Of a stretch of 64,000 bases of DNA, positions 13,564 through 64,000 are shown one piece after another (the stretch's first letter is position 1; the number at the start of each line of letters is the position of its first letter). A program made the position numbers and the translations under genes. The notes under the pieces are model-generated. The model did not search any database. It was not told the origin of the DNA and saw only the letters and a list, made by a program, of their open reading frames with translations. The stretch covers positions 42,381 to 106,380 of IMG/VR virus record IMGVR_UViG_3300014205_000187; one strand, given 5' to 3'. This stretch comes from a virus. Its lineage: Duplodnaviria; Caudoviricetes.

Positions 13564-14325
13564 ATGATTGAGATTATCAACGGTGACTGCGTGGCCGAGA
13601 TGGAAAAACTCGGCAAACAATCTGTCAATTGCATAGTCACATCTCCCCCTTACAACTTCGACATCAACTATAATGAATACGATGATGGCATGCCCCGAGA
13701 CAAATACTTAGACTGGCTCGTAGACGTGGCTCATTCGATGCACAAGGTCTTAACCAAGGATGGCAGCATCTTTCTAAACGTAGGATTCAAACCCACAGAC
13801 CCCTGGTTGCCTTATGATGTCTTAAATGTGTTTAGACGCACGTTCTACGCTCAGAACCAGTTCATCTGGGCCAAAAGTGCCTATGTTCCTCAAGCCAAGA
13901 AAACCTATGGACATTTTCGTCCACTCAACTCTCCACGATTCGTTAATCGATGCTGGGAGTTTGTTTTCCATCTCACCAGAACCTCTGATGTCGTTCTTGA
14001 TCGATTGGCTTTAGGAGTTCCTTACGAAGATAAAAGCAACAAGCGTCGTTGGAGTAATCCTGATGATCTTCGATGTCGAGGAGATGTATGGTTCATTCCT
14101 TATGAGACAAAACAGAAAAAGGGTAAACATCCGGCAACATTCCCGCCGAAGTTGGCGATGTATGCTTATGCTCTACATGGTCTTGACCGAATAGAGCTTG
14201 CGATGGACCCGTTTGTTGGAGAAGGAAATAGTGCTGTGGCCGCTAAAAAATTGGACTTGAACTTTGTTGGTATCGACATCGACTCTTTATACTGTGAAAT
14301 AGCGAGAAAAGCTGTAAAAGGCTGA
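13564..14325 (+). CDS. amino-DNA methyltransferase (N4-C/N6-A, beta class)
   Basis: TSPPY catalytic motif precedes HPATFP and DPFVGEG SAM-binding motif. Confidence 0.92.
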   Translation: MIEIINGDCVAEMEKLGKQSVNCIVTSPPYNFDINYNEYDDGMPRDKYLDWLVDVAHSMHKVLTKDGSIFLNVGFKPTDPWLPYDVLNVFRRTFYAQNQFIWAKSAYVPQAKKTYGHFRPLNSPRFVNRCWEFVFHLTRTSDVVLDRLALGVPYEDKSNKRRWSNPDDLRCRGDVWFIPYETKQKKGKHPATFPPKLAMYAYALHGLDRIELAMDPFVGEGNSAVAAKKLDLNFVGIDIDSLYCEIARKAVKG

Positions 14326-33055: not shown

Positions 33056-33787
33056 ATGCCTAATAGACCTACAGCCATTTTAACCGAAGCACAGGTTGTT
33101 GAGATTCTGGATTTACTGAAAGTCAAAGTATCTCACCAAAATATAGCTGATCGATATGGCGTCTCAAAAAAGTCTATCTCTCGCATAGCCACTGGAGAAA
33201 CATGGAGAGATATATCTCTCCGATATGGTCTACAAACACCTCCATCTCAAACCATAATTCCAGTCATTAACCTTGTTCCCATCCCTACCGAGTTTTGTGA
33301 TCTCCTGGATGAAATAACTGCTGTTAAAAATCACTTTGCCTTATCTTTCACTCATCCTCTTTATTGGGGTCAATTTTCCAGTTGGGATGGAGTCCATTCA
33401 ATTGTAAGCGATGGTTACATCATCTGGGAATCTCTTGATCTCTACAACTATGCCAAGCGTTTATCTGATACCAAGATAATTGGGTATCCAGTATGGTCCG
33501 AAAAAACTGAAGAATTACCCACTTTTGAACTGGAAGATTTTATGACTCAACCCGTTGGTGATAAGTTTACAGTCAACAGTGGGGGAGGCGATATAGTAAA
33601 ACTCGTATCCTCTAACAAAGAGTTGTTCATCAGAGCAAAGTATGTTACAATGGCTATACGAATGAAGCTCGATATTAGAGAAGCGCAAACTAATGATAGT
33701 TTTGTTTATCTAACTAAAAACAAACCCAAAGCCACAAGTGACCCAATGCCTATTGTAATCGCTTGTGCAACGGTATTGAATGATTAG
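33056..33787 (+). CDS. HTH-containing protein
   Basis: LTEAQVVEI..IADRYGVSKKSISRIATGETW. Confidence 0.7.
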   Translation: MPNRPTAILTEAQVVEILDLLKVKVSHQNIADRYGVSKKSISRIATGETWRDISLRYGLQTPPSQTIIPVINLVPIPTEFCDLLDEITAVKNHFALSFTHPLYWGQFSSWDGVHSIVSDGYIIWESLDLYNYAKRLSDTKIIGYPVWSEKTEELPTFELEDFMTQPVGDKFTVNSGGGDIVKLVSSNKELFIRAKYVTMAIRMKLDIREAQTNDSFVYLTKNKPKATSDPMPIVIACATVLND

Positions 33788-34024: not shown

Positions 34025-34642
34025 ATGGGTAGTAATTATAAAATTATTCTTACCCCAAGCCAATTAGCTCATATCAAAAATCGATACGAACATGACAGAG
34101 CTACGGCGGCTGTAATATCCCGAGAGTTGGAAAACATATCTCCTCAAATAGTTTTACGTGCCCTCAAAGACTTAGGCATTAAACGCTATAAAGGAGGTCG
34201 AAGGCGCGGACAATACCCTGTAAACGCTAAAGGTTATAAGAAATGTGTTGATTGCGGTGAGACTAATCTAGCTGAAACACATTTCTTTCCTGCAAAAGTC
34301 AGCTCTGATGGTTATACTGTACGGTGCAAATCATGTCATCAAAAGATGAATAGGCACTTAAAACTAAAACGTGAGTTTGGCCTTACTTTGGCAGAATACG
34401 ATATTTTACTTGAAAATCAAAAAGGAGTCTGTGCTATCTGTGGCATGGCAGAAACTAGACAAGTTAGACACCAAAAAATCTATCATTTAGCGGTTGACCA
34501 CGACCACGCCACAGGAAAACTCAGAGGACTACTATGTTCTCGGTGTAATAAATTACTTGGAGCACTCAATGACGATATAGGTATTTGTAAAGCTATCATA
34601 GCTTATCTAACTCATTGGAGAAAACAACATAATGCTCCATAA
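34025..34642 (+). CDS. endonuclease VII-type HNH homing endonuclease
   Basis: QKGVCAICG..LAVDHDHATGKLRGLLCSRCN. Confidence 0.9.
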   Translation: MGSNYKIILTPSQLAHIKNRYEHDRATAAVISRELENISPQIVLRALKDLGIKRYKGGRRRGQYPVNAKGYKKCVDCGETNLAETHFFPAKVSSDGYTVRCKSCHQKMNRHLKLKREFGLTLAEYDILLENQKGVCAICGMAETRQVRHQKIYHLAVDHDHATGKLRGLLCSRCNKLLGALNDDIGICKAIIAYLTHWRKQHNAP

Positions 34643-36011: not shown

Positions 36012-36611
36012 ATGCCTAATCAACATTGTTTAACGGAAATATCAGAAGAAGATCGTGAATCAATACTTGAATACTATAAAACAGGTATTGGTGTAGATAC
36101 TCTAGTTAAACGGGGTCTTAGTCCTTACGGGCATGTGGTCACACAACGAGTAATACGTGAATCCAAAATACCAAAAATGCCTCGCGGCAATCAGGTTCAT
36201 TACAAACCTAAGTGTCCTGATAATAAGGTATGCCCTCGTTGTAAACTTGAAAAACCAAAGGAGGCGTTTGGAACACACTGCACCAATAAAGATGGGTTAA
36301 GATCGCATTGTAGAAAATGCCGTACTGAGATGGAAAGACCTGGAGGTATACGCCGACATCATGGAATTAGCCTTGAAGATTATGATATGATGTTTGCTAA
36401 ACAAAAAGGTCTCTGTGCTTGTTGTGGAAAACCAGAAACTTCAAAGAAACGAAAAGATAGGTGCAGTTTATCTATAGATCATGACCATAAAACAGGCAAA
36501 GTAAGACAACTTCTTTGCCATCGTTGTAATGTTGTCCTTGGGTTGGTCTATGAAAATCCGACCCTGTGTGAACTGTTGAGAAGCTATATTCTCAAACATA
36601 AAGAAAGGTAG
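36012..36611 (+). CDS. endonuclease VII-type HNH homing endonuclease
   Basis: QKGLCACCG..LSIDHDHKTGKVRQLLCHRCN. Confidence 0.9.
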   Translation: MPNQHCLTEISEEDRESILEYYKTGIGVDTLVKRGLSPYGHVVTQRVIRESKIPKMPRGNQVHYKPKCPDNKVCPRCKLEKPKEAFGTHCTNKDGLRSHCRKCRTEMERPGGIRRHHGISLEDYDMMFAKQKGLCACCGKPETSKKRKDRCSLSIDHDHKTGKVRQLLCHRCNVVLGLVYENPTLCELLRSYILKHKER

Positions 36612-36620
36612 GGTAAAGCC

Positions 36621-37124
36621 ATCCCAGCTAGTTTTTCGTGGTCCCAAACAATAGGTGCCCCTGCTGGAACACGTCAAGATTTAGGTTCGTCCGGGAATCT
36701 CATGAATTTCAAAAACGTCGATTCAATAGGCACCAGTGACTATTCTCAGTACCCAGTGCCAGCAGGTAGTAACTCTTACGAGGTTTGGCTACAAGCTCAT
36801 TTTACGGGAACTTTCAACTCGATCTATGATTTGAGGTTCTGGATGAGCACAGACTTCAGCCCCAACACAGGGCTGACCGTCAAAGTGAAGGCCAATCAGC
36901 AGTCCTACAATCAGCCCTCCAACGCAACGTCCTCGATTGCAACATCTACCATTAGCACGAGTGACCCTGGAACAGCAAACGTGAGTGTGGCTGGAAATCT
37001 TACCAGCTCTATCACTACGTCCGGCTATACAGACTATATCGTGCTTCAGTTGCAAACAACGACAGCGGCTCCGGCTGGTGATACGAGTTTGGCTACATTC
37101 AGTCTCTCATATATCGAGACCTGA
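36621..37124 (+). CDS. putative virion structural protein; start probably upstream of ATG 36702 (ATC 36621?)
   Basis: Frame open from 36612; Ser/Thr-rich; YTDYIVLQLQ..PAGD motif. Confidence 0.55.
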   Translation: MPASFSWSQTIGAPAGTRQDLGSSGNLMNFKNVDSIGTSDYSQYPVPAGSNSYEVWLQAHFTGTFNSIYDLRFWMSTDFSPNTGLTVKVKANQQSYNQPSNATSSIATSTISTSDPGTANVSVAGNLTSSITTSGYTDYIVLQLQTTTAAPAGDTSLATFSLSYIET

Positions 37125-55764: not shown

Positions 55765-55812
55765 CTGGTAGAAATACCAGCAGGTAATTGTACCAGCTAG
55801 TAAAATTACCTG
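55765..55812. promoter_or_regulatory. three abutting copies of the 16-bp C(T/A)(G/A)GTA-N4-TACC(A/T)G motif
   Basis: CTGGTAGAAATACCAG CAGGTAATTGTACCAG CTAGTAAAATTACCTG. Confidence 0.7.
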
Positions 55813-55843: not shown

Positions 55844-56296
55844 TCACTCCTTTACTTCATACATGTCAACACTCAACAATATACGTCTATACTCTGAAAC
55901 TATGTCCGATAATATGTTGATTATGACTTTATCTTTAAGTTTCTTGCCTGATGCCAATTCCCTGAGCAATTGCCTTGAGAGTTGTTTAGATGTCTGGAAG
56001 TGATGAGCGGCCATGAACACCTTAGCATCATAAGCAGGTAACACACGGGGCAATTCGTCAATAGCCAATAGGTACTTTGCAAAGTACAACCTGTTAGCTT
56101 CGGTCTCATTCTGCCATGCCTTGTAGTTGCTATAATACGGCTTGCCTGTAAGCTCGCATATAAACCGCTTAGGCGTCGATTCCTGAGCGTTTAAGAACTC
56201 AATGGACTCTAACGCTATGCCGTTCATTCGTACGACCTTGTTGAGAGCGTTTACAATACTTATCTGTTTACGTGCTAACCTAGTTGCCATGACCAT
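55844..56296 (-). CDS. hypothetical protein (cassette array)
   Basis: ORF downstream of a repeated promoter. Confidence 0.65.
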   Translation of the reverse strand: MVMATRLARKQISIVNALNKVVRMNGIALESIEFLNAQESTPKRFICELTGKPYYSNYKAWQNETEANRLYFAKYLLAIDELPRVLPAYDAKVFMAAHHFQTSKQLSRQLLRELASGKKLKDKVIINILSDIVSEYRRILLSVDMYEVKE

Positions 56297-56320
56297 ATAC
56301 CCCACTTGATTATATATCTA

Positions 56321-56366
56321 ATTATACAAGCACATATCGTGCCTTGTCACCTGTCAAAAGTACTAG
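56321..56366 (-). promoter_or_regulatory. cassette promoter 1 (16-bp motif + GG-N10-GC + TATAAT)
   Basis: GGCACGATATGTGC at 56343-56330. Confidence 0.7.
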
Positions 56367-56370
56367 GATT

Positions 56371-56556
56371 TCAACATTCACGCTCAAGCCCATAATGCGG
56401 CGTGAATCTATAGCGTATACCCTTAGATGATACAAGATGATATACATCAGGCTTATAATCCCCTGGTGTAAGCTCTATAGAGCTAACTGTGAGTGTCATA
56501 AACCCCACTCTGACTGTCTTACCCACTTCCCATGCCTGTTTGCTATGCTGTATCAT
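56371..56556 (-). CDS. hypothetical protein
   Basis: GAGGG RBS; SKQAWEVGKTVRVGF. Confidence 0.65.
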   Translation of the reverse strand: MIQHSKQAWEVGKTVRVGFMTLTVSSIELTPGDYKPDVYHLVSSKGIRYRFTPHYGLEREC

Positions 56557-56569
56557 TGTATTCCCTCTC

Positions 56570-56683
56570 TTACTTATTAAATAAGTGCTGTATGCTTGAG
56601 ATTGTTCCCCATGCGCCATAGATCAATGGCGATATGAGAATTATTAAACCGAACAATTTGACTTTCCAATTCATGTTAGACAT
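56570..56683 (-). CDS. 37-aa membrane peptide
   Basis: GGAGG RBS; MSNMNWKVKLFGLIILISPLIYGAW.. Confidence 0.55.
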   Translation of the reverse strand: MSNMNWKVKLFGLIILISPLIYGAWGTISSIQHLFNK

Positions 56684-56747
56684 TGTATGTATCCTCCGTT
56701 TTTGCTTATAATAGATTATTCCATACCCTACATGCGCCCATCCTGTA

Positions 56748-56942
56748 TTAAATACCTGTTTTGCGTAGTTCTTCGATAGGCATGTATTTTACAGTCCGAT
56801 TCTTCGACTTTTGCAGCATGGTCACTTTTCTAAGCAAGTCTTGAGCTGAAATAGTATCCAAGTATTCCCCTTTAGAGTTTGAAATACTAGCCCAATGCCT
56901 GTTATCAGCACTATGGTAAAGCTCATAATAGTATGTTTCCAT
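56748..56942 (-). CDS. hypothetical protein
   Basis: AATTGGGGGAT leader. Confidence 0.6.
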   Translation of the reverse strand: METYYYELYHSADNRHWASISNSKGEYLDTISAQDLLRKVTMLQKSKNRTVKYMPIEELRKTGI

Positions 56943-56972
56943 GTGATTATCCCCCAATTGAATACCTATATA

Positions 56973-57018
56973 ATTATACTTGCAAAAATCGTACCCTGTC
57001 ACCTGTTAAAAGTACTAG
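56973..57018 (-). promoter_or_regulatory. cassette promoter 2
   Basis: GGTACGATTTTTGC at 56995-56982, then TATAAT. Confidence 0.7.
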
Positions 57019-57067
57019 GATTTCCATATTCGAGTCGTTATCCATATAAGCACTTTCAAAACTGTAT

Positions 57068-57241
57068 TCATGATAATCCCCCTTTATGCTTGATAGGGAC
57101 ATTGAGAAGTAAAACATCGTACCCGAATAAGCATGGCGATATGAACGCATAACGATCATACATGCTCATGGCACGTTTAGCGATTCTCATGGCCGTTATG
57201 CCGTCTATGTTCGACTTTGTAGCTTGAATCGTGAAAAACAT
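57068..57241 (-). CDS. 57-aa hypothetical protein
   Basis: AAAGGAG RBS; below the ORF-track cutoff. Confidence 0.5.
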   Translation of the reverse strand: MFFTIQATKSNIDGITAMRIAKRAMSMYDRYAFISPCLFGYDVLLLNVPIKHKGGLS

Positions 57242-57465
57242 CGGCTTTACTCCTTTGCTCTTATAATAGGTTGTTCCATGTATGCAGAGGATTTCACCAA
57301 GTAAAAATACCAGGTTTTTGAGGACACAAAGTACTAGCTAGTACTTCAACTAGGATTGTTGGAGACCTAGTAATTGTACTAGGTATGTTCACATGTAGTG
57401 AACTAAGTGGCGAGTCAAGCGGCGTACATAGTGTTTGTTACTGCTACTGCCAAGCCGCAGCTATA

Positions 57466-57765
57466 TTATGCTACTGCTGCTGTTTTGACGGCCTTTATTT
57501 GATGATACCACGGTCTTACACGGAATCTGCAACCTGTTTCAGGGTCTATGAAGTCAACGCATACAAAACTTGTAGGATTGCCAGGAGTATGATGTACCAC
57601 AGGAACATTGACACTGGCAACAATCCCAACCATGCCAGGTTGAACCAGGAACGAATGAGCTTTAATCCAGCATCTTTCCTTTGGGTATGGCCTTCCGAAG
57701 TGTTCCCCATAAATAGCTTCGGTCAAAGTAACTTGCATACCGATTGCCACATTCTTCTTCTGCAT
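57466..57765 (-). CDS. hypothetical protein
   Basis: GAGGAGG RBS. Confidence 0.6.
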   Translation of the reverse strand: MQKKNVAIGMQVTLTEAIYGEHFGRPYPKERCWIKAHSFLVQPGMVGIVASVNVPVVHHTPGNPTSFVCVDFIDPETGCRFRVRPWYHQIKAVKTAAVA

Positions 57766-57863
57766 GGTTAAAGTTCCTCCTCACAATCGCATTCATACCA
57801 GAACTCTCCACAACCAGCACATATTCCGGCTTGTATAGACCTGCCACATGTGCGTGTCGTTTC

Positions 57864-58046
57864 CTAATTCCGATAATCAAACTCGACTTTTCCCACCATG
57901 TTTCCGTTGATGTCACGAACACCATGATGATAAGAACTTGGTAAACTTTCCTCAAGATCGTCGGCAATTTGTCTGAGCTGCCGAATACACTCAGCATGAT
58001 CGCTTGCGCTGTTTTGATTACCCAGTTTCATTGTGAGTTTATACAT
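57864..58046 (-). CDS. hypothetical protein
   Basis: AATTGGAGGGTATC leader; RDINGNMVG motif. Confidence 0.7.
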   Translation of the reverse strand: MYKLTMKLGNQNSASDHAECIRQLRQIADDLEESLPSSYHHGVRDINGNMVGKVEFDYRN

Positions 58047-58087
58047 ACTGATACCCTCCAATTAAGTATACAACTAACTGTATACTT

Positions 58088-58132
58088 AGTATAAGGCACA
58101 ATACGTGCCACGTCCATAGGTATAAATACCAG
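58088..58132 (-). promoter_or_regulatory. cassette promoter 3
   Basis: TGGCACGTATTGTGC then TATACT. Confidence 0.75.
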
Positions 58133-58181
58133 GATTTTTCTGGGAAAAAGTACTAGCTAGTACTTTAGAGGGGTGTGGGTA

Positions 58182-58231
58182 AAAGACCCACTCTGCGAGT
58201 GAGGCAACATCAACTCGCAGAGTGGGTCTTT
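58182..58231 (-). terminator. 19-bp perfect hairpin terminator
   Basis: AAAGACCCACTCTGCGAGT-N12-ACTCGCAGAGTGGGTCTTT. Confidence 0.8.
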
Positions 58232-58257
58232 GCTATTTTACAATACTCAGCTCTGTT

Positions 58258-58524
58258 TTACCTGTCCTTTGGAACAAAACGAGCTTTGAACTCAGCTAAC
58301 TCCACGACATACAGCCGGTAACTTTCCTCGATCATGGCGGCATCGGCATCAGGAAGCATGGAGCTTATCAAACCAAACCCGCCGACTTCGTATATTCGCA
58401 GTAGGTCTTTTTTGCCGTCTACATCGCTAATAAGCGGATGAGTTTGATATACCCGATGCACAATATCCCATTCTTCATCGGTGATATAGTGCTTTATTGC
58501 GCGTTCCCACTCTGACTTCATCAT
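58258..58524 (-). CDS. hypothetical protein
   Basis: ATGA-coupled to the 58521 ORF. Confidence 0.65.
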   Translation of the reverse strand: MMKSEWERAIKHYITDEEWDIVHRVYQTHPLISDVDGKKDLLRIYEVGGFGLISSMLPDADAAMIEESYRLYVVELAEFKARFVPKDR

Positions 58525-59285
58525 GACTGCACCACCAAACTGACATAGCCGCCTTCACCCTCGGCCATGTATGCTTTTACCAAGTTCAATTTACGCTTGG
58601 CGAAGAACTTACGAAGAACGCTTCGCACGTTGTACGGCTCTTCTCCTTGCGCTATTTGACGTTCCATCATTCCCCACACTAAACGAGGATTGCCAAACGG
58701 AACTTCGGCGAATGCTTGATGAAACAGAGTAGGTACGAAACTGTTTTCCCGAAAGTGCATCAGGTAGTGATCGAACATAAGCTCTTTATGCCCTTGAGCT
58801 TCAAAACGGCATCCCCAACAATCGGCATCGGACACTTCGGGAAGTCCATTCCGCATGATATGCGCGGTATAAGCGGTTATGTACCGACTTACCATGCGGT
58901 CAATTCTCTTTTTAGCCTTTTCAACTTCCTCTGCATCGTACTTGCTCTTGGAGACAATCTCAACATCGGTTTCAGTAACTCGTACCTGTATACCGTCTTC
59001 AAACATTCCCAGGTTATCCCCTGCATGGTAGATGTACCACAAACCGTTATCCTGCCAGATATTGAAAACAGGTAACAACGTGTTAAATCTATCCTTTGTG
59101 GTAGCAGTTCTAAAACCGCCGGAATTGAGGGTATACGTGCCATCAGACTCTATGCGGATAATATCAGTATCCCAGAACCGTACAATGAGCGTTTCCCCCT
59201 CTAAACGTAAAACTGTGTTCCTTGCTAACTTCTTACTCGCACCACGCGCTTTGTCGAGTAGCATACGCCCTTCTTGATAGTTCAT
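58521..59285 (-). CDS. hypothetical protein
   Basis: KLARNT..LNSGGFRTATTKDRFN; GGAGG RBS. Confidence 0.75.
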   Translation of the reverse strand: MNYQEGRMLLDKARGASKKLARNTVLRLEGETLIVRFWDTDIIRIESDGTYTLNSGGFRTATTKDRFNTLLPVFNIWQDNGLWYIYHAGDNLGMFEDGIQVRVTETDVEIVSKSKYDAEEVEKAKKRIDRMVSRYITAYTAHIMRNGLPEVSDADCWGCRFEAQGHKELMFDHYLMHFRENSFVPTLFHQAFAEVPFGNPRLVWGMMERQIAQGEEPYNVRSVLRKFFAKRKLNLVKAYMAEGEGGYVSLVVQS

Positions 59286-59324
59286 GACTTCCTCCGTTAA
59301 TTGAATATATGCTTAACTACATTA

Positions 59325-59370
59325 AGTATACTTGCAAGAATCGTACCTTGTCACCTGTTAAAAATACTAG
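59325..59370 (-). promoter_or_regulatory. cassette promoter 4
   Basis: GGTACGATTCTTGC then TATACT. Confidence 0.75.
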
Positions 59371-59435
59371 GATTTGAAACGAGGTCTATTTTACAATACC
59401 ACACGAAAGTACTAGCTAGTACTTTCTTTTTATAA

Positions 59436-59477
59436 AGAAAACCTGGTAAAATTACCAGCAGGTAAGATTACCAGGCC
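59436..59477 (-). terminator. terminator built from two tandem 16-bp motifs
   Basis: Minus strand CCTGGTAA..TTACCAGG followed by TTTTCTTT. Confidence 0.7.
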
Positions 59478-59481
59478 ACTA

Positions 59482-59691
59482 TTACTGCTGTATCTCGAAC
59501 AACTCCAACTTACGGATAGCGGCGACCTTGTTCTTTACCCCAAGTTTGCCATACACATGGGCGATATGAAAGTCAACTGTTCGCTTTGACAAATAGAGCT
59601 TTTCGGCGATGTCCTTAGACTTCAAACCGTCTGCTACCAACTCCATGACTTCTCGCTCTCTTTTCGTCAATTGTACCGTATCTGTTGCCAT
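59482..59691 (-). CDS. stand-alone LuxR/GerE-type HTH protein
   Basis: LTKREREVMELVADGLKSKDIAEKLYLSKRTVDFHIAHVYGKLGV. Confidence 0.92.
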   Translation of the reverse strand: MATDTVQLTKREREVMELVADGLKSKDIAEKLYLSKRTVDFHIAHVYGKLGVKNKVAAIRKLELFEIQQ

Positions 59692-59773
59692 GATAAGCTC
59701 CTTTTAGTGTGATGTTGCTTCAACTACGTTCGATTTAATCAGATTTCAATGCACTTCTGCTAAAACTACGTTT

Positions 59774-60310
59774 TTACACGATGTCCCACACAATAGACGT
59801 TTTCCACGTAAAACCGTATGAGAAGTCATCTTCCGTGAACTTCGCTTCGATGTCGCATAGAGTCTGGTTTCCATGATCGTTGGTGACAATGACACTTTTA
59901 GGCAGTTTGCCATCTTCAACAAGCATGGTATCCAGCTCTGACAAGTCGGATACTTCGTGAAGTGTTCCCTCTCGAATGTCTTCACGTATAGAGTCATCGT
60001 CAACCCACACCCCATAATCAGCAGCGTCGCCAGGATGGGTACCAAAGTAGGTGTACGACGGGCAATAATCGTAAAGCATATTCATGAGTTCGTCAACTAT
60101 CTCAGACAGACAATTAACAATATCATCTAACTCCAGAGTCGAATGGTTTGTTCGTTTGCCGTCTAAGTAGTTGAAGTACTTCCGATTAGCCCAATGGTAC
60201 GACTTTGCCCGTTTAGGGTCTACACCCCCCAAAATCGCCATAAAGCTGGGTATCAAGTCTTCTTCAAGCATAGTGCCCGATGATACAGAACCTAATTCTA
60301 AAGTTTCCAT
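59774..60310 (-). CDS. hypothetical protein
   Basis: Cassette leader; YFGTHPGDAADYGVW. Confidence 0.75.
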   Translation of the reverse strand: METLELGSVSSGTMLEEDLIPSFMAILGGVDPKRAKSYHWANRKYFNYLDGKRTNHSTLELDDIVNCLSEIVDELMNMLYDYCPSYTYFGTHPGDAADYGVWVDDDSIREDIREGTLHEVSDLSELDTMLVEDGKLPKSVIVTNDHGNQTLCDIEAKFTEDDFSYGFTWKTSIVWDIV

Positions 60311-60340
60311 GCAGATACCCTCCAATTGAGTATATACCTA

Positions 60341-60385
60341 AGTATAAAGCATAAAACGTGCCGTGTCACCTGTAAAATATACCAG
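60341..60385 (-). promoter_or_regulatory. cassette promoter 5
   Basis: GGCACGTTTTATGC then TATACT. Confidence 0.75.
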
Positions 60386-60440
60386 GATTTAAGTATTTAT
60401 ACTTCCTGCCACAAGTACTAGCTAGTACTTTCTTTTTATA

Positions 60441-60485
60441 AAGAAAAGCCTGGTAATTCTACCTGCATAGTAAAATTACCAGGCC
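60441..60485 (-). terminator. terminator built from two tandem 16-bp motifs
   Basis: GCCTGGTAATT..AATTACCAGGC followed by TTTTCTTT. Confidence 0.75.
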
Positions 60486-60492
60486 GCTGCTG

Positions 60493-60909
60493 TTACACCC
60501 ATTTATGCCGCAGTGCGTACCCGCCATCCGAATGCTGATGTGGGGTATAATCACGGTCGCCGTTGCTGTGATCGTTTGACGGGCAGCTCTTACCTATACA
60601 CTCGAAGTTATCTTTGAAAAGTGTTCGGCTGAGAGAATAAACCACATGAAAGCCCATGTCCATTCCACAGCCTGAAACGCTCAAACATTCACGCTTATCA
60701 TTGAACCGTTCGCCGATTGCTTTACCCACCAAACGACTAATCCACTGAGGTACATTGTCACTCATATAGTAAACATCTATACCCCTACTCATACCACTCT
60801 GAGACCTATACCGAAGAACCGTATACACAGTGTCACCAGGCTTTAAGACCTGCCGTAAATGCTGTATAGCTTCTTGTCTCTCAGCTTCTTTATCGCTCTT
60901 TATCGACAT
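60493..60909 (-). CDS. hypothetical protein
   Basis: SQSGMSR..VSGCGMDMGFHVVY motif seen in small phage proteins. Confidence 0.75.
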   Translation of the reverse strand: MSIKSDKEAERQEAIQHLRQVLKPGDTVYTVLRYRSQSGMSRGIDVYYMSDNVPQWISRLVGKAIGERFNDKRECLSVSGCGMDMGFHVVYSLSRTLFKDNFECIGKSCPSNDHSNGDRDYTPHQHSDGGYALRHKWV

Positions 60910-60951
60910 GCAGATACCCTCCAATTAGTTGTATAACTAAGTCTATACCTA

Positions 60952-60996
60952 ATTATAAGCAATAAACGTGCCAAAGTCTATTGGTAAAAATGCTGG
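60952..60996 (-). promoter_or_regulatory. cassette promoter 6 (perfect sigma54 consensus)
   Basis: TTGGCACGTTTATTGC then TATAAT. Confidence 0.8.
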
Positions 60997-61101
60997 GTTT
61001 TCAGGGATTTTACTGAAGTATAAAGTACTAGCTAGTACTTCACACAGGCACAAAACAACCTGGTAAAATTACTGGGTAGTAGTTTTACCAGGCCGCTGCT
61101 G

Positions 61102-61749
61102 TTACTGCTGCAATGGCAATGATATTGTTAATACATCGGGTTCGACATCGGAGAATGTCTCTTTAAGAAGTTCGACAAGATACTCATCTTTATAACTTCC
61201 TTCAAAAGAGTCATATTCCATAATCGCTTCAGCGACAAGAGCCTTGACCATTTCCTCATCTTCGGGTTCCGGTCTATAGAATCCATTGTCGTCAAGCAGT
61301 CGCAGTATATGCGCCGCTTCAGCCATCTTACTGACATCCCACTTCGCCCAATTATCATAAGCGTTGTTTGCCTGCTCCAGTTCACGAGCCATCATGTCCT
61401 CTTCATCTATCACCAGATGCCCATGCCATCGGGTATACATGAACAGCTCATGCAGGCATTCCATAGCTTTGCGGGATGTAGTCTTGACCATGATATGGTC
61501 ATACCAACCTACAGCCCAATGACTTGTATGCATGGTCTCAACGTACTTCGGAGCTGCTTTCTTGAGTGCCCGTAAAACTGCATAATAGTTCGACTGCTCT
61601 AATATGTCCGAATCACGATGCAGTCCGAACGGCGCGAATCCCCAGACTTTCAGGTCAAGCTCACCGGAATACATAAAGTTCCTCGGCTTGGTAAGCATAG
61701 CCTCTTTGAAACCTTCGATAGTCTCATACTTCTTGGTGTCCTCTATCAT
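61102..61749 (-). CDS. hypothetical protein
   Basis: HRDSDILEQSNY, SHWAVGW. Confidence 0.75.
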   Translation of the reverse strand: MIEDTKKYETIEGFKEAMLTKPRNFMYSGELDLKVWGFAPFGLHRDSDILEQSNYYAVLRALKKAAPKYVETMHTSHWAVGWYDHIMVKTTSRKAMECLHELFMYTRWHGHLVIDEEDMMARELEQANNAYDNWAKWDVSKMAEAAHILRLLDDNGFYRPEPEDEEMVKALVAEAIMEYDSFEGSYKDEYLVELLKETFSDVEPDVLTISLPLQQ

Positions 61750-61753
61750 GCTG

Positions 61754-62164
61754 CTACTCCTCTAAGGCATTCGGATAAGGTGGGAGAGTAAAAGGTGGTT
61801 CATTGCATCGGTAGTATTCCATGATACCTTCCCATGCTTCATCATACTCATCAGCTTTACAGCGTTGAGTGGGTAGGTTCGTAACATTCTTAACATCCTG
61901 AACATGCATATAGTCTACAGGGTTTGTAGACACTGCCCATGCCTGCTGAACTTCCTGCTCTACTTCGTCATTGTTTTCGTCATATACCCGAATCACTGCC
62001 TGTAAAGCATGAAGTTCATAAGACGGCGTGAACTCGCAAAGATGCCAATGGATATTCTCATTATAGAGGTATATACCATATATAGCACCTCCGGCCTTCT
62101 CTACAAGTTCAGCATCCCAATACTCGGTCTCATCTATAACTAATACTCTCGGCTTGATATACAT
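61754..62164 (-). CDS. hypothetical acidic protein
   Basis: AATTGGAGAGTATC leader. Confidence 0.7.
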   Translation of the reverse strand: MYIKPRVLVIDETEYWDAELVEKAGGAIYGIYLYNENIHWHLCEFTPSYELHALQAVIRVYDENNDEVEQEVQQAWAVSTNPVDYMHVQDVKNVTNLPTQRCKADEYDEAWEGIMEYYRCNEPPFTLPPYPNALEE

Positions 62165-62205
62165 GATGATACTCTCCAATTGGTAAGACAACTAAGTCTA
62201 TACTT

Positions 62206-62251
62206 AGTATATCGCACATTCCGTGCCAATGGGAATTGGTAAATATACCTG
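62206..62251 (-). promoter_or_regulatory. cassette promoter 7
   Basis: TTGGCACGGAATGTGC then TATACT. Confidence 0.75.
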
Positions 62252-62469
62252 ATTTCAAAAACGAGGTCTATCTTACGCTACCTACATGAATTACTAGCCA
62301 GTACTTTCTTCCCGCAAAACCATCCCCGTATTTCTACGGGGGTGATTTATTAACGATCAAGACAATCCCCACTGCTGCTGCTACTGCTGTCCAGAATGTA
62401 ACGTCCATACCGAATGCAGGATATATCCAAACAGCGCATACAGCCGCTAGAATAACGACCAGAGCCGCC

Positions 62470-62853
62470 TTAGTCAATGCAATGCTCTGGCAGCTCGGCG
62501 TCAAACTCGCTTGCACAGTGAGAGCAGGTCAACTTCTGAGTAGCCGGATAATCGCACATCGTATTGAGCGTTTCACATATCGGACATTCCCATTCATAGC
62601 CCGATGCTACCACGTCTACGCAGCCACTCCATTCAACCGTGTCGGACACTTCGTTAGCTTCAAAAGTGCCATCTTCGTACTCATACTCATCCATGTTCCA
62701 TACTATACGAGCATCCGTGGTCGTAAGTGTTCCATCGGCTATCATTTCCTCGACAAGAGCTTGAGCCGCTTCCTCATTCTCAGCTTCTATAAGCACCTTG
62801 CCGGTCATATAGCCATGCTTCTCGACATCTACAACATACCGAATTGTCTCCAT
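62470..62853 (-). CDS. acidic zinc-ribbon protein
   Basis: AAGGAGG RBS; WECPIC..CSHC. Confidence 0.7.
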   Translation of the reverse strand: METIRYVVDVEKHGYMTGKVLIEAENEEAAQALVEEMIADGTLTTTDARIVWNMDEYEYEDGTFEANEVSDTVEWSGCVDVVASGYEWECPICETLNTMCDYPATQKLTCSHCASEFDAELPEHCID

Positions 62854-62863
62854 GTATTCCTCC

Positions 62864-63055
62864 TTAACCTATATCGAAAACATCAGTAGCGTCAAAGTAT
62901 CCCTGAAACTTGTGACCACACTTCTGGCATATCAAATGCTTTCGTGCAGTCTCATTGTCGAAGTTGCACATGGTATGATACTCACCACAATCAGGACATT
63001 CCCATTCAAACCTCGCTATGATGACATTCACCCTTTCGAGTCGTTTTTTACTCAT
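62864..63055 (-). CDS. zinc-ribbon protein
   Basis: WECPDC..CQKC. Confidence 0.65.
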   Translation of the reverse strand: MSKKRLERVNVIIARFEWECPDCGEYHTMCNFDNETARKHLICQKCGHKFQGYFDATDVFDIG

Positions 63056-63297
63056 CGTGCATCCGTCCAGACTGTACCATCGTCATGCAGGTCAAGAACC
63101 TGCCCGTCCAGTTCTCCGGTAAGACCCGCTTCAAGCATACCTGTAGCGATATTCTCAATACAGCCATGCTCAACTGCGATAGCTTCGCCAAGTGTTTGAC
63201 GATCTTCGGGTAAATGTTCCTCAACCCATTCCTGAGCTTCAGGGGTATTCAGGAACAAAAGATAAATGGTACCGTGATTATTGATTCTAAAGTCCAT
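63052..63297 (-). CDS. hypothetical protein
   Basis: NHGTIYLL..AQEWVEEHL..IAVEH. Confidence 0.7.
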   Translation of the reverse strand: MDFRINNHGTIYLLFLNTPEAQEWVEEHLPEDRQTLGEAIAVEHGCIENIATGMLEAGLTGELDGQVLDLHDDGTVWTDAR

Positions 63298-63298
63298 T

Positions 63299-63697
63299 TT
63301 ACACCCCTAACTTTCGATAAGCACACAGCTCACCACTCGGATGGTAGCGAACCGTGATACCTTTTGTGAATGCGGTCTCAGTGTCGGGTACGATTCCCTC
63401 ATGATCAGCACATTCCGCTAAAGCATCAGCAATGGCGTTCCCGATTTTAGCCTGCACTCCACGATAAGTACTCACAGGTTCAGAGTATTCCAATTCCACA
63501 CTGAACTTACTCGACTGTGAACCTTCCTCAACACGCTCTACGGTGAAGTCTTCCAAACCATCAGGCATGACTTCTACCTCGTTGGCAAAGCTGTCAAAGA
63601 GGTCACAAACGCCATCTACGGCCTTCTGACGTTCCTCCTCCGTCAAGTCACGTTGAAAGTTCAATTCGACTGTGACATTGACAACATTTCTTTCCAT
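63299..63697 (-). CDS. hypothetical acidic protein
   Basis: AATTAGGAGGTATC leader. Confidence 0.7.
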   Translation of the reverse strand: MERNVVNVTVELNFQRDLTEEERQKAVDGVCDLFDSFANEVEVMPDGLEDFTVERVEEGSQSSKFSVELEYSEPVSTYRGVQAKIGNAIADALAECADHEGIVPDTETAFTKGITVRYHPSGELCAYRKLGV

Positions 63698-63728
63698 GTT
63701 GATACCTCCTAATTAGTTATCCTACTAA

Positions 63729-63773
63729 AGTATAACGCATAAAGTGTGCCCTGTCTGCTGGTATATTTACCAG
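63729..63773 (-). promoter_or_regulatory. cassette promoter 8
   Basis: GGCACACTTTATGC then TATACT; CTGGTATATTTACCAG upstream. Confidence 0.75.
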
Positions 63774-63831
63774 ATTTCAAAAACGAGGTCTATCTTACGA
63801 TACCACACGAAAGTACTAGCTAGTACTTCTA

Positions 63832-63999
63832 TCAGGTAAGGGCAGGACTTGATACATCCTCCAAGACAAACTCCAATGCCTTCTCAGCCGTCTTCTCATC
63901 GGTTCCAGGCCATTCTTCCTGAACCATAGATACAGTAGGAAAACGGCGTACTTTTACGTTGACCGCCGGATGAGAATGTCTAGCAGGATTATCCCTATG
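63832..63999 (-). CDS. 3' end of a hypothetical gene running off the window
   Basis: Open frame ..PAVNVKVRRFP..ALT* ending next to the palindrome. Confidence 0.5.
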   Translation of the reverse strand, partial: HRDNPARHSHPAVNVKVRRFPTVSMVQEEWPGTDEKTAEKALEFVLEDVSSPALT

Positions 64000-64000
64000 A

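Follow-up and report, generated by a model that had tools for sequence, protein, structure and literature searches.

An 18-bp perfect palindrome, AAGTACTAGCTAGTACTT, recurs among the small early genes of an uncultivated tailed phage, and we see about an even chance that a dimeric, sequence-specific protein recognizes it as DNA, the site marking the early-gene class of a whole phage family. The DNA analyzed here (the window) is a stretch of 64,000 nucleotides that forms the last 64 kb of a 106,380-bp phage record in IMG/VR (IMGVR_UViG_3300014205_000187, hereafter G000); coordinates refer to the window unless marked as genome positions. That a protein binds the site, in which sense it would regulate and what it might be are points that we infer from comparative sequence. 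The repetition itself is real and far from chance: as a sequence-only reading of this DNA had counted, the window holds six exact copies and one with two mismatches, where shuffled sequences lead one to expect 0.03 and none of 100 shuffles reaches seven matches. The ends of the record overlap by 123 bp, indicating a circular assembly, and two further exact copies lie just past the circular junction, at genome 289 and genome 465. All nine fall within one 8.8-kb block on the minus strand, the other ~97 kb of the genome having none, and copies of the inner 12 bp (the core) with one mismatch occur at window 55791 and genome 337. The same earlier reading had remarked on exact conservation amid diverged flanks, and indeed the information content of the G000 copies drops sharply beyond the 18 bp. 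The copies in the window are the following, with distances running from the palindrome center to the GG of the promoter downstream:

55791..55802, 12-bp core with one mismatch, TACCAGCTAGTA, at the far end of the block, with no promoter after it
57329..57346, exact 18-bp palindrome, preceding another promoter type upstream of the gene at 57068-57241
58148..58165, exact 18-bp palindrome, 47 bp from center to GG
59407..59424, exact 18-bp palindrome (22 bp including flanks), 68 bp from center to GG
60413..60430, exact 18-bp palindrome, 59 bp from center to GG
61023..61040, exact 18-bp palindrome, 59 bp from center to GG
62289..62306, degenerate palindrome with two mismatches, 70 bp from center to GG
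63811..63828, exact 18-bp palindrome, 69 bp from center to GG

The block itself comprises about 20 small genes, mostly of unknown function, on the minus strand from 55844 to 64000 and on past the junction to genome 858. Run X3, a landfill metagenome that contains 88% of the window's sampled words, reads the consensus letter at one of the two mismatches of the degenerate copy (62291 T>G).

Alignments of the ligase and the methyltransferase recovered four related genomes from IMG/VR, namely G001 (98 kb), G002 (114 kb), G003 (92.6 kb) and G007 (112 kb, complete), so that the family, which comes from landfill and groundwater, is represented here by five phages. Ligases of G001-G003 are 41-47% identical to that of G000, and methyltransferases of all four relatives 54-65%. 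Each relative has a small-gene block with the same core-gene neighbors and the same anatomy. In the homologous blocks of G001, G003 and G007, the 12-bp core, TACTAGCTAGTA, is present exactly (26, 12 and 8 copies), retained at a divergence where intergenic DNA is otherwise unalignable, and in G002 the core reads TACCAGCTGGTA (11 copies), both halves having changed symmetrically. The symmetric change, together with retention of the core in three relatives, argues for recognition of a twofold-symmetric site. When perfect palindromes were counted de novo in the whole genomes of G000-G003 (G007 was searched by pattern), this element was by far the commonest in each, the runner-up having 3-5 copies:

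G000: AAGTACTAGCTAGTACTT, 8 copies
G001: TACTAGCTAGTA, with varying flanks, 26 copies
G002: TGTACCAGCTGGTACA, 10 copies, plus an eleventh copy of the core
G003: GGTACTAGCTAGTACC, 12 copies
G007: GTACTAGCTAGTAC, 8 copies of the 12-bp core, with slightly variable flanks

The exact 18-mer is found in no IMG/VR record besides the phage's own and matches once in 185,579 species genomes (an Alkalihalophilus contig); it also occurs in 13 metagenome contigs, in single copy. We set all of these contigs aside as chance matches, the phage and the contigs being unrelated by blastn and tblastx, and a literature text search for the motif returned unrelated primer matches only. The palindrome is composed of words that are rare in these phages: CTAG is 2- to 7-fold under-represented in the whole genomes of G000-G003 (94 seen and 402 expected in G000) and GTAC about 2-fold, and the G002 variant drops its CTAGs.

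Within the block, the palindrome belongs to an intergenic cassette that is repeated at least ten times, each repeat with a terminator hairpin, -35 and -10 boxes and the ribosome site AATTGGAGG. Read along the minus strand, a gene's stop codon is followed by a terminator-like hairpin, the palindrome and a spacer of 10-35 nt of variable sequence; then come a GGTA-N4-TACC box, a -35-like GAC word, the pattern GG-N10-GC and, 1-3 nt later, TATACT or TATAAT; about 25 nt after this -10 box stand the ribosome site and the ATG. The GGTA-N4-TACC box is flanked by A and T runs and centered near -44, and the terminator hairpins, whose arms are often CCTGGTA/TACCAGG with a T run behind them, have folding energies of -20 to -35 kcal/mol. 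One half-site, CYRGTA, builds the -44 box, the terminator stems and the palindrome alike. The palindrome itself lacks the G+C-rich stem and T run of an intrinsic terminator: as RNA it would form a hairpin of 7-9 bp with an A+T-rich stem and a folding energy of -8 to -10 kcal/mol, and a T run follows only one or two of the G000 copies and none in G001, G002, G003 or G007. Promoters of the GG-N10-GC/TATAAT build with a ribosome site occur only in the early block in all five phages, and nearly all of them have a palindrome 38-91 bp upstream. The elements of these cassettes in the window are:

56319..56371, minus strand, promoter cassette without a palindrome, its -44 box holding the 9-nt palindrome half CTAGTACTT
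56971..57023, minus strand, promoter cassette without a palindrome, its -44 box likewise holding CTAGTACTT
58085..58137, minus strand, promoter cassette with -10 TATACT, GG-N10-GC and the upstream GGTA-N4-TACC box near -44
58182..58231, minus strand, strong terminator-like hairpin belonging to the upstream gene, which transcription meets just before palindrome 58148
59323..59375, minus strand, promoter cassette built like that at 58085, with GTGACA, an 18-bp spacer and TATACT
59442..59475, minus strand, terminator-like hairpin with CCTGGTA/TACCAGG arms, before palindrome 59407
60338..60390, minus strand, promoter cassette built like that at 58085, with GTGACA, a 17-bp spacer and TATACT
60447..60485, minus strand, terminator-like hairpin with a T run, before palindrome 60413
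60949..61001, minus strand, promoter cassette built like that at 58085
62203..62255, minus strand, promoter cassette built like that at 58085
62324..62341, minus strand, terminator-like hairpin before the degenerate palindrome 62289
63726..63778, minus strand, promoter cassette built like that at 58085

Two cassettes, at 57255-57300 and 56695-56740, carry another type of promoter, TGGAAYAAYCTATTATAAG, with the same upstream box, and one of them follows palindrome 57329.

The spacing between palindrome and promoter points to the helical face of the DNA. We measured from the palindrome center to the promoter GG, which adds 8 to the distances of 39, 51, 51, 60, 61 and 62 bp given by the sequence-only reading; these were reproduced as 47, 59, 59, 68, 69 and 70 bp, for copies 58148, 60413, 61023, 59407, 63811 and the degenerate 62289, respectively. 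Across the five phages the distances (bp) are:

G000: 47, 59, 59, 68-71
G001: 38, 49, 49, 57, 64-66 (eight copies), 77 (three copies), 79, 81, 89
G002: 50, 50, 58, 59
G003: 49, 49, 50, 58, 59, 60
G007: 48, 52, 62, 72, 91

The 31 de-duplicated distances give a Rayleigh R of 0.55 for periods of 10.25-10.5 bp (p ~0.0002 against a uniform distribution) and collapsing distances within each genome leaves 21 values with p ~0.007, both p-values being optimistic because copies are related by duplication and the reference point for phasing having been picked after the data were seen. Periods outside 9.5-11.5 bp give R of at most 0.39. In G003, spacers of one length class (49-50 or 58-60) are unrelated in sequence, which argues for selection on length and not for shared descent. 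We regard helical phasing of palindrome and promoter, on a ladder of about 10.3 bp, as moderately supported; of the helical phase claimed earlier, the ladder extends across all five phages, and the main distance classes of G001 depart from it.

Several features favor an operator read as DNA, because the palindrome stands between terminator and promoter, would make a poor terminator, is exactly conserved, has changed symmetrically and keeps a helical register. The site would lie in an untranscribed gap, after the terminator of one small gene and before the promoter of the next. If transcription is assumed to start about 7 nt after the -10 box, the palindrome center falls between about -65 and -110, outside the polymerase footprint on its upstream side; simple occlusion is then not expected, and any effect would come through same-face contact or a short bridge. 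A bound dimer would most likely signal to the promoter complex from one helical face, either by direct contact, in the manner of class I activators, or through a bridge to the -44 box (GGTA-N4-TACC), which has its CYRGTA half-site in common with the palindrome and is therefore the partner that suggests itself. By either route all early cassettes would switch together, and a protein bound behind each terminator could also insulate adjoining cassettes from one another. As to the sign of regulation, we lean slightly toward timed shut-off or insulation over activation, because the promoters of G001 are already consensus and a pure activator would be less necessary. If one protein does read the palindrome, it would be a master switch of about 20 early genes, plausibly genes of host take-over. 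The palindrome would then be a handle for finding the regulator and defining the early regulon, and it would help to explain how self-contained gene cassettes stay co-regulated while they are shuffled.

Among known systems, the closest in build are the PeSL cassettes of T4-type phages (PMC2839356, PMC4122927), which likewise repeat terminator, promoter and ribosome-site modules among small early genes of a hyperplastic region. Near-consensus sigma-70-type promoters occur in both systems, and in both the content and order of genes vary between relatives. The block described here has the composite module of that type (stem-loop, sigma-70-like promoter, ribosome site and start codon between small genes) and the hyperplasticity as well: of its ~22 open reading frames (ORFs) in G000, one is shared with three relatives and six with a single relative each, the gene order is shuffled between G000 and G002, and whole cassettes come and go in X3. 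In the landfill contigs, an 876-nt insertion lies at 63847/63859, 19-31 nt from palindrome 63811, and a co-existing form lacks one whole cassette, from ~60496 to 61135. The PeSL stem-loop, however, is the G+C-rich terminator itself and variable in sequence, whereas here the terminator hairpin is a separate element and an extra palindrome, without a loop, follows it, with one sequence in all copies, conserved in distant relatives and helically phased. Recombination between copies, with mini-circles or breakpoints inside the motif, belongs to the PeSL type; here no sign of mini-circles or recombination was seen at the palindrome itself, the two real indel breakpoints lying near it. The system thus appears to be a variant of PeSL-type early cassettes with a dedicated, family-conserved palindromic operator, a component that the PeSL papers do not describe (PMC2839356, PMC4122927).

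A precedent for the proposed reader comes from KorA of plasmid RP4, a 101-amino-acid helix-turn-helix (HTH) dimer of GerE/sigma-4-like fold that binds a 12-bp symmetric operator, OA, with central TAGCTA at seven promoters, where OA cooperates with a second operator (of the partner KorB) at set center-to-center distances; a small HTH dimer can therefore read a 12-bp symmetric, TAGCTA-centered site at many promoters (PMC2665229). The core of the palindrome shares with the OA of IncP plasmid RP4/RK2 its perfect 12-bp symmetry, its central TAGCTA and its repetition at several promoters of one mobile genome, and the two differ in their outer triplets, GTT/AAC in OA and TAC/GTA here. OA sites overlap or abut the promoter, and the palindromes here stand about 40-60 bp upstream of the -35 position. 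In contrast to the KorA system, these phages have no KorA-family protein above cut-off, and no ParB/KorB-type protein was found in them. Short operators repeated in intergenic gaps and read genome-wide by one regulator are also known as the stoperators of cluster A mycobacteriophages (L5) and the scattered C1 operators of P1, which are asymmetric and orientation-dependent and serve the prophage repressors of temperate phages. The element here differs in being perfectly palindromic and limited to a single early block, and the phages have no integrase match (PF00589).

Either the phage or its host could supply the binder, and three phage proteins were considered:

59482..59691, minus strand, stand-alone GerE/LuxR-type HTH protein of 69 amino acids inside the block, present in G000 and G001 (two of five phages)
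First gene of the block, HTH_58 plus CxxC..CxxC zinc-ribbon protein of ~110 amino acids, present in four of five phages
33056..33787, plus strand, core protein of 243 amino acids whose N-terminal part carries an HTH, a candidate encoded by every one of the five phages (47-63% identity)

The GerE-type protein, nearly alone among the block proteins in having a family match, was rejected as a universal binder because G002, G003 and the complete G007 lack it. No block protein is common to four phages except the HTH plus zinc-ribbon protein, which as a universal binder is weakened by its absence in G007 and by the repeat array that each phage has directly upstream of its gene. These arrays are dense direct and inverted repeats of a 12-24-nt word that differs in every phage (genome 880-1110 in G000, G001:78250-78900, G002:104950-105250 and G003:45780-45960); an array could be a replication origin or a set of autoregulatory operators co-evolving with the protein, and it is a likelier target for this fast-diverging protein than the palindrome. 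Foldseek with its model gave generic HTH matches only, at E above 0.1, and tblastn with its sequence gave no match. Of the HTH proteins, only the 243-amino-acid one, with its weak Pfam match to HTH_23, was seen in every phage; its family has ~60 members, on metagenomic contigs only, the longest ~92-115 kb, and about ten near-full-length contigs beyond the five phages encode it (99.9, 100.7, 103.8, 112.3, 113.0 and 114.8 kb among them). Apart from HTH_23, a Pfam scan of 28 mostly conserved proteins of 60-263 amino acids found as DNA-binding domains only zinc ribbons and two endonuclease VII domains. ParB/KorB-type proteins gave nothing above cut-off in the phages, and the KorA family (PF16509) gave one sub-threshold hit of 14 bits, in the 243-amino-acid protein of G001. 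In the four phages other than G007, the HTH plus zinc-ribbon gene stands ahead of the palindrome pair that opens the block; in G007, which has no such gene, the first gene after that pair (G007:108933-109910) encodes a 325-amino-acid AAA+ ATPase that, from our reading of its sequence, resembles RuvB.

A number of observations weigh against a dedicated operator and its reader. The GerE-type protein is missing from three of the relatives, the complete G007 among them, and G007 also lacks the HTH plus zinc-ribbon protein. The five-of-five presence of the 243-amino-acid protein carries little weight because it is a core gene, and its structural model is poor (mean pLDDT, the predicted local distance difference test, 49). 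Some palindromes have no promoter to serve: extra copies stand in pairs 28-62 bp apart, and others at both ends of the block. The commonest distance classes of G001 (64-66 and 77) do not share the phase of the rest, the duplication of copies flatters the p-values, and a symmetric base change would keep a hairpin stem just as it keeps a protein site.

This last point bears on a reading of the palindrome as an RNA hairpin in read-through transcripts, serving as a back-up terminator, a processing site or an alternative hairpin with CYRGTA, which we consider very unlikely. The 18-mer does fold into a hairpin of the stability given above, the change in G002 (T-A to C-G) preserves the loop-closing pair, 15 of 25 copies in G001 have a CYRGTA word exactly 4 nt upstream that could pair with the left arm, and copy 59407 scores as terminator-like on the plus strand. 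Yet the palindrome is probably little transcribed, because it lies downstream of the much stronger T-run terminators; no T run follows it in the four relatives, a hairpin would tolerate compensatory changes where the copies are identical within a genome, and the phasing with the promoter has no explanation in RNA. Recombination would dispense with a reader altogether: the palindrome would be part of a PeSL-like terminator-promoter cassette, its copies supplying homology for the gain, loss and reordering of cassettes, and it may have arisen as the junction of two adjacent CYRGTA-N4-TACYRG hairpin units. We hold this to be unlikely, even though the block is hyperplastic, with a single G000 ORF shared by three relatives and an order unlike that of G002, the X3 insertion falls next to palindrome 63811 and a form lacking the cassette at 60496-61135 exists, one half-site builds terminator stems, -44 box and palindrome, and the PeSLs of T4-type phages share the general build and role (PMC4122927). 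Homology alone gives no reason for 12-18 bp to stay exact while the adjoining 30 bp diverge, nor for a core kept across phages whose ligases are only 41-47% identical, and it leaves the symmetric change in G002 and the ~10-bp ladder of distances unexplained. Moreover, the two real indel breakpoints lie near the palindrome and not within it, and most apparent joints at palindromes in X3 contigs are mapping artefacts of the copies at genome 289 and genome 465, outside the window; we rejected the loose ends that suggested a 'deletion' or an 'inversion' as evidence of recombination, as they match the flanks of the genome-465 copy. A recombinase core site, which the sequence-only reading had offered as its alternative, is disfavored: neither tyrosine recombinase (PF00589) nor serine recombinase (PF00239) has a match in the five genomes.

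The sequence-only reading had also given the promoter a -24 element, a sigma-54 framing, and had likened the palindrome to an upstream activating sequence (UAS). The pattern behind the -24 element stands, in that GG-N10-GC, with the spacing of -24 GG and -12 GC, is invariant in all block promoters of the five phages, often as TGGCAC-N5-TTGC, while its distance to the -10 box varies by 1-3 bp; the sigma-54 type is not demonstrable. A TATAAT-like -10 box follows the GC by 1-3 bp in every copy, and the G001 consensus is TTGACA, an 18-nt spacer holding TGGCAC-N5-TTGCA, and then TATAAT, so that GG-N10-GC sits between a perfect TTGACA and a perfect TATAAT. What reads the conserved GG and GC could be sigma-54, a repressor or a phage factor. 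On sequence grounds, sigma-70-type recognition is sufficient, because each promoter has a -10 box and those of G001 have TTGACA as well. The sigma-54 activator ATPase (PF00158) has no match above cut-off among the phage genes of G000-G003 and G007. A UAS at which a host enhancer-binding ATPase activates a sigma-54 promoter by looping, from the correct helical face, is in our judgment highly improbable. It would account for GG-N10-GC being invariant while the spacing to the TATAAT box is not and for the helical phase of the distances, and the G002 palindrome fits the low-information pattern TGT-N10-ACA, which we take to be the consensus for an activator site. Against this stand the TATAAT-like box of every promoter and the TTGACA of G001 at 18 bp, the absence of an activator domain above cut-off in any of the five phages, with the sub-threshold hit in G007 falling on the protein that resembles RuvB, an AAA+ branch-migration helicase, and a site 38-91 bp from the GG, nearer than typical enhancers; we also know of no phage whose first genes depend on an activated host enhancer protein. 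Just as remote is a dual early promoter, in which a sigma-54-type -24/-12 element would be nested in the sigma-70 promoter and the phased palindrome would be the enhancer for a host or unrecognized phage activator; were it true, this would be the first phage family with early genes gated by host sigma-54 enhancer machinery. Quite unlikely, too, is the exploitation of a global regulator of the host (CRP/FNR/NtcA type or similar) to fire the early genes on entry. The palindromes of G000, G002, G003 and G007 contain GTA-N8-TAC, presumably the NtcA consensus, with TGTA-N8-TACA in G002; distance ladders of the ~10-bp kind are classic for class I CRP sites, and no phage candidate is convincingly linked to the palindrome. 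Conservation, however, is the reverse of an NtcA or CRP site with conserved outer arms and a variable inner spacer: the 12 inner positions do not vary, whereas the outer triplets differ from phage to phage and, in G001, where they are mostly TTA...TAA, from copy to copy. The scarcity of the exact 18-mer in species genomes and its single, unrelated metagenome copies also speak against a host regulator.

The phages are far from anything in culture. The block and 20 kb of the window have no blastn match among GenBank phages, and by tblastn the large terminase is at most 29% identical to that of any cultured phage and so offers no clue to the host. Single early proteins used as queries found no relatives, and weak matches of ~30% were seen in phages of 140-208 kb. 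G003 (IMGVR_UViG_3300037067_010411) is rated 94% complete and is without an equivalent of ~32 kb of G000, at genome 38-70 kb, where polymerase, reductase, terminase, portal and capsid lie. Between the palindromes at genome 289 and genome 465 (genome 307-464) are GCCGCAGC-type repeats, and all four relatives have similar GCYGCR repeats after gene ends or palindrome pairs; such repeats may code for short Ala-rich peptides. The structural region contains two endonuclease VII (HNH-type) genes (34025-34642 and 36012-36611), and the N-terminal part of the first is similar to the block's HTH plus zinc-ribbon protein. Adjoining the second is a conserved gene (36843-37124) of 93 amino acids, ~167 in relatives, that may have been split by an insertion. 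There are also two DNA methyltransferase genes, of the N6_N4_Mtase and MT-A70 families (window 13564-14325 and genome 11286-12017), the MT-A70 enzyme being 59-70% identical among the four aligned phages, G000-G003.

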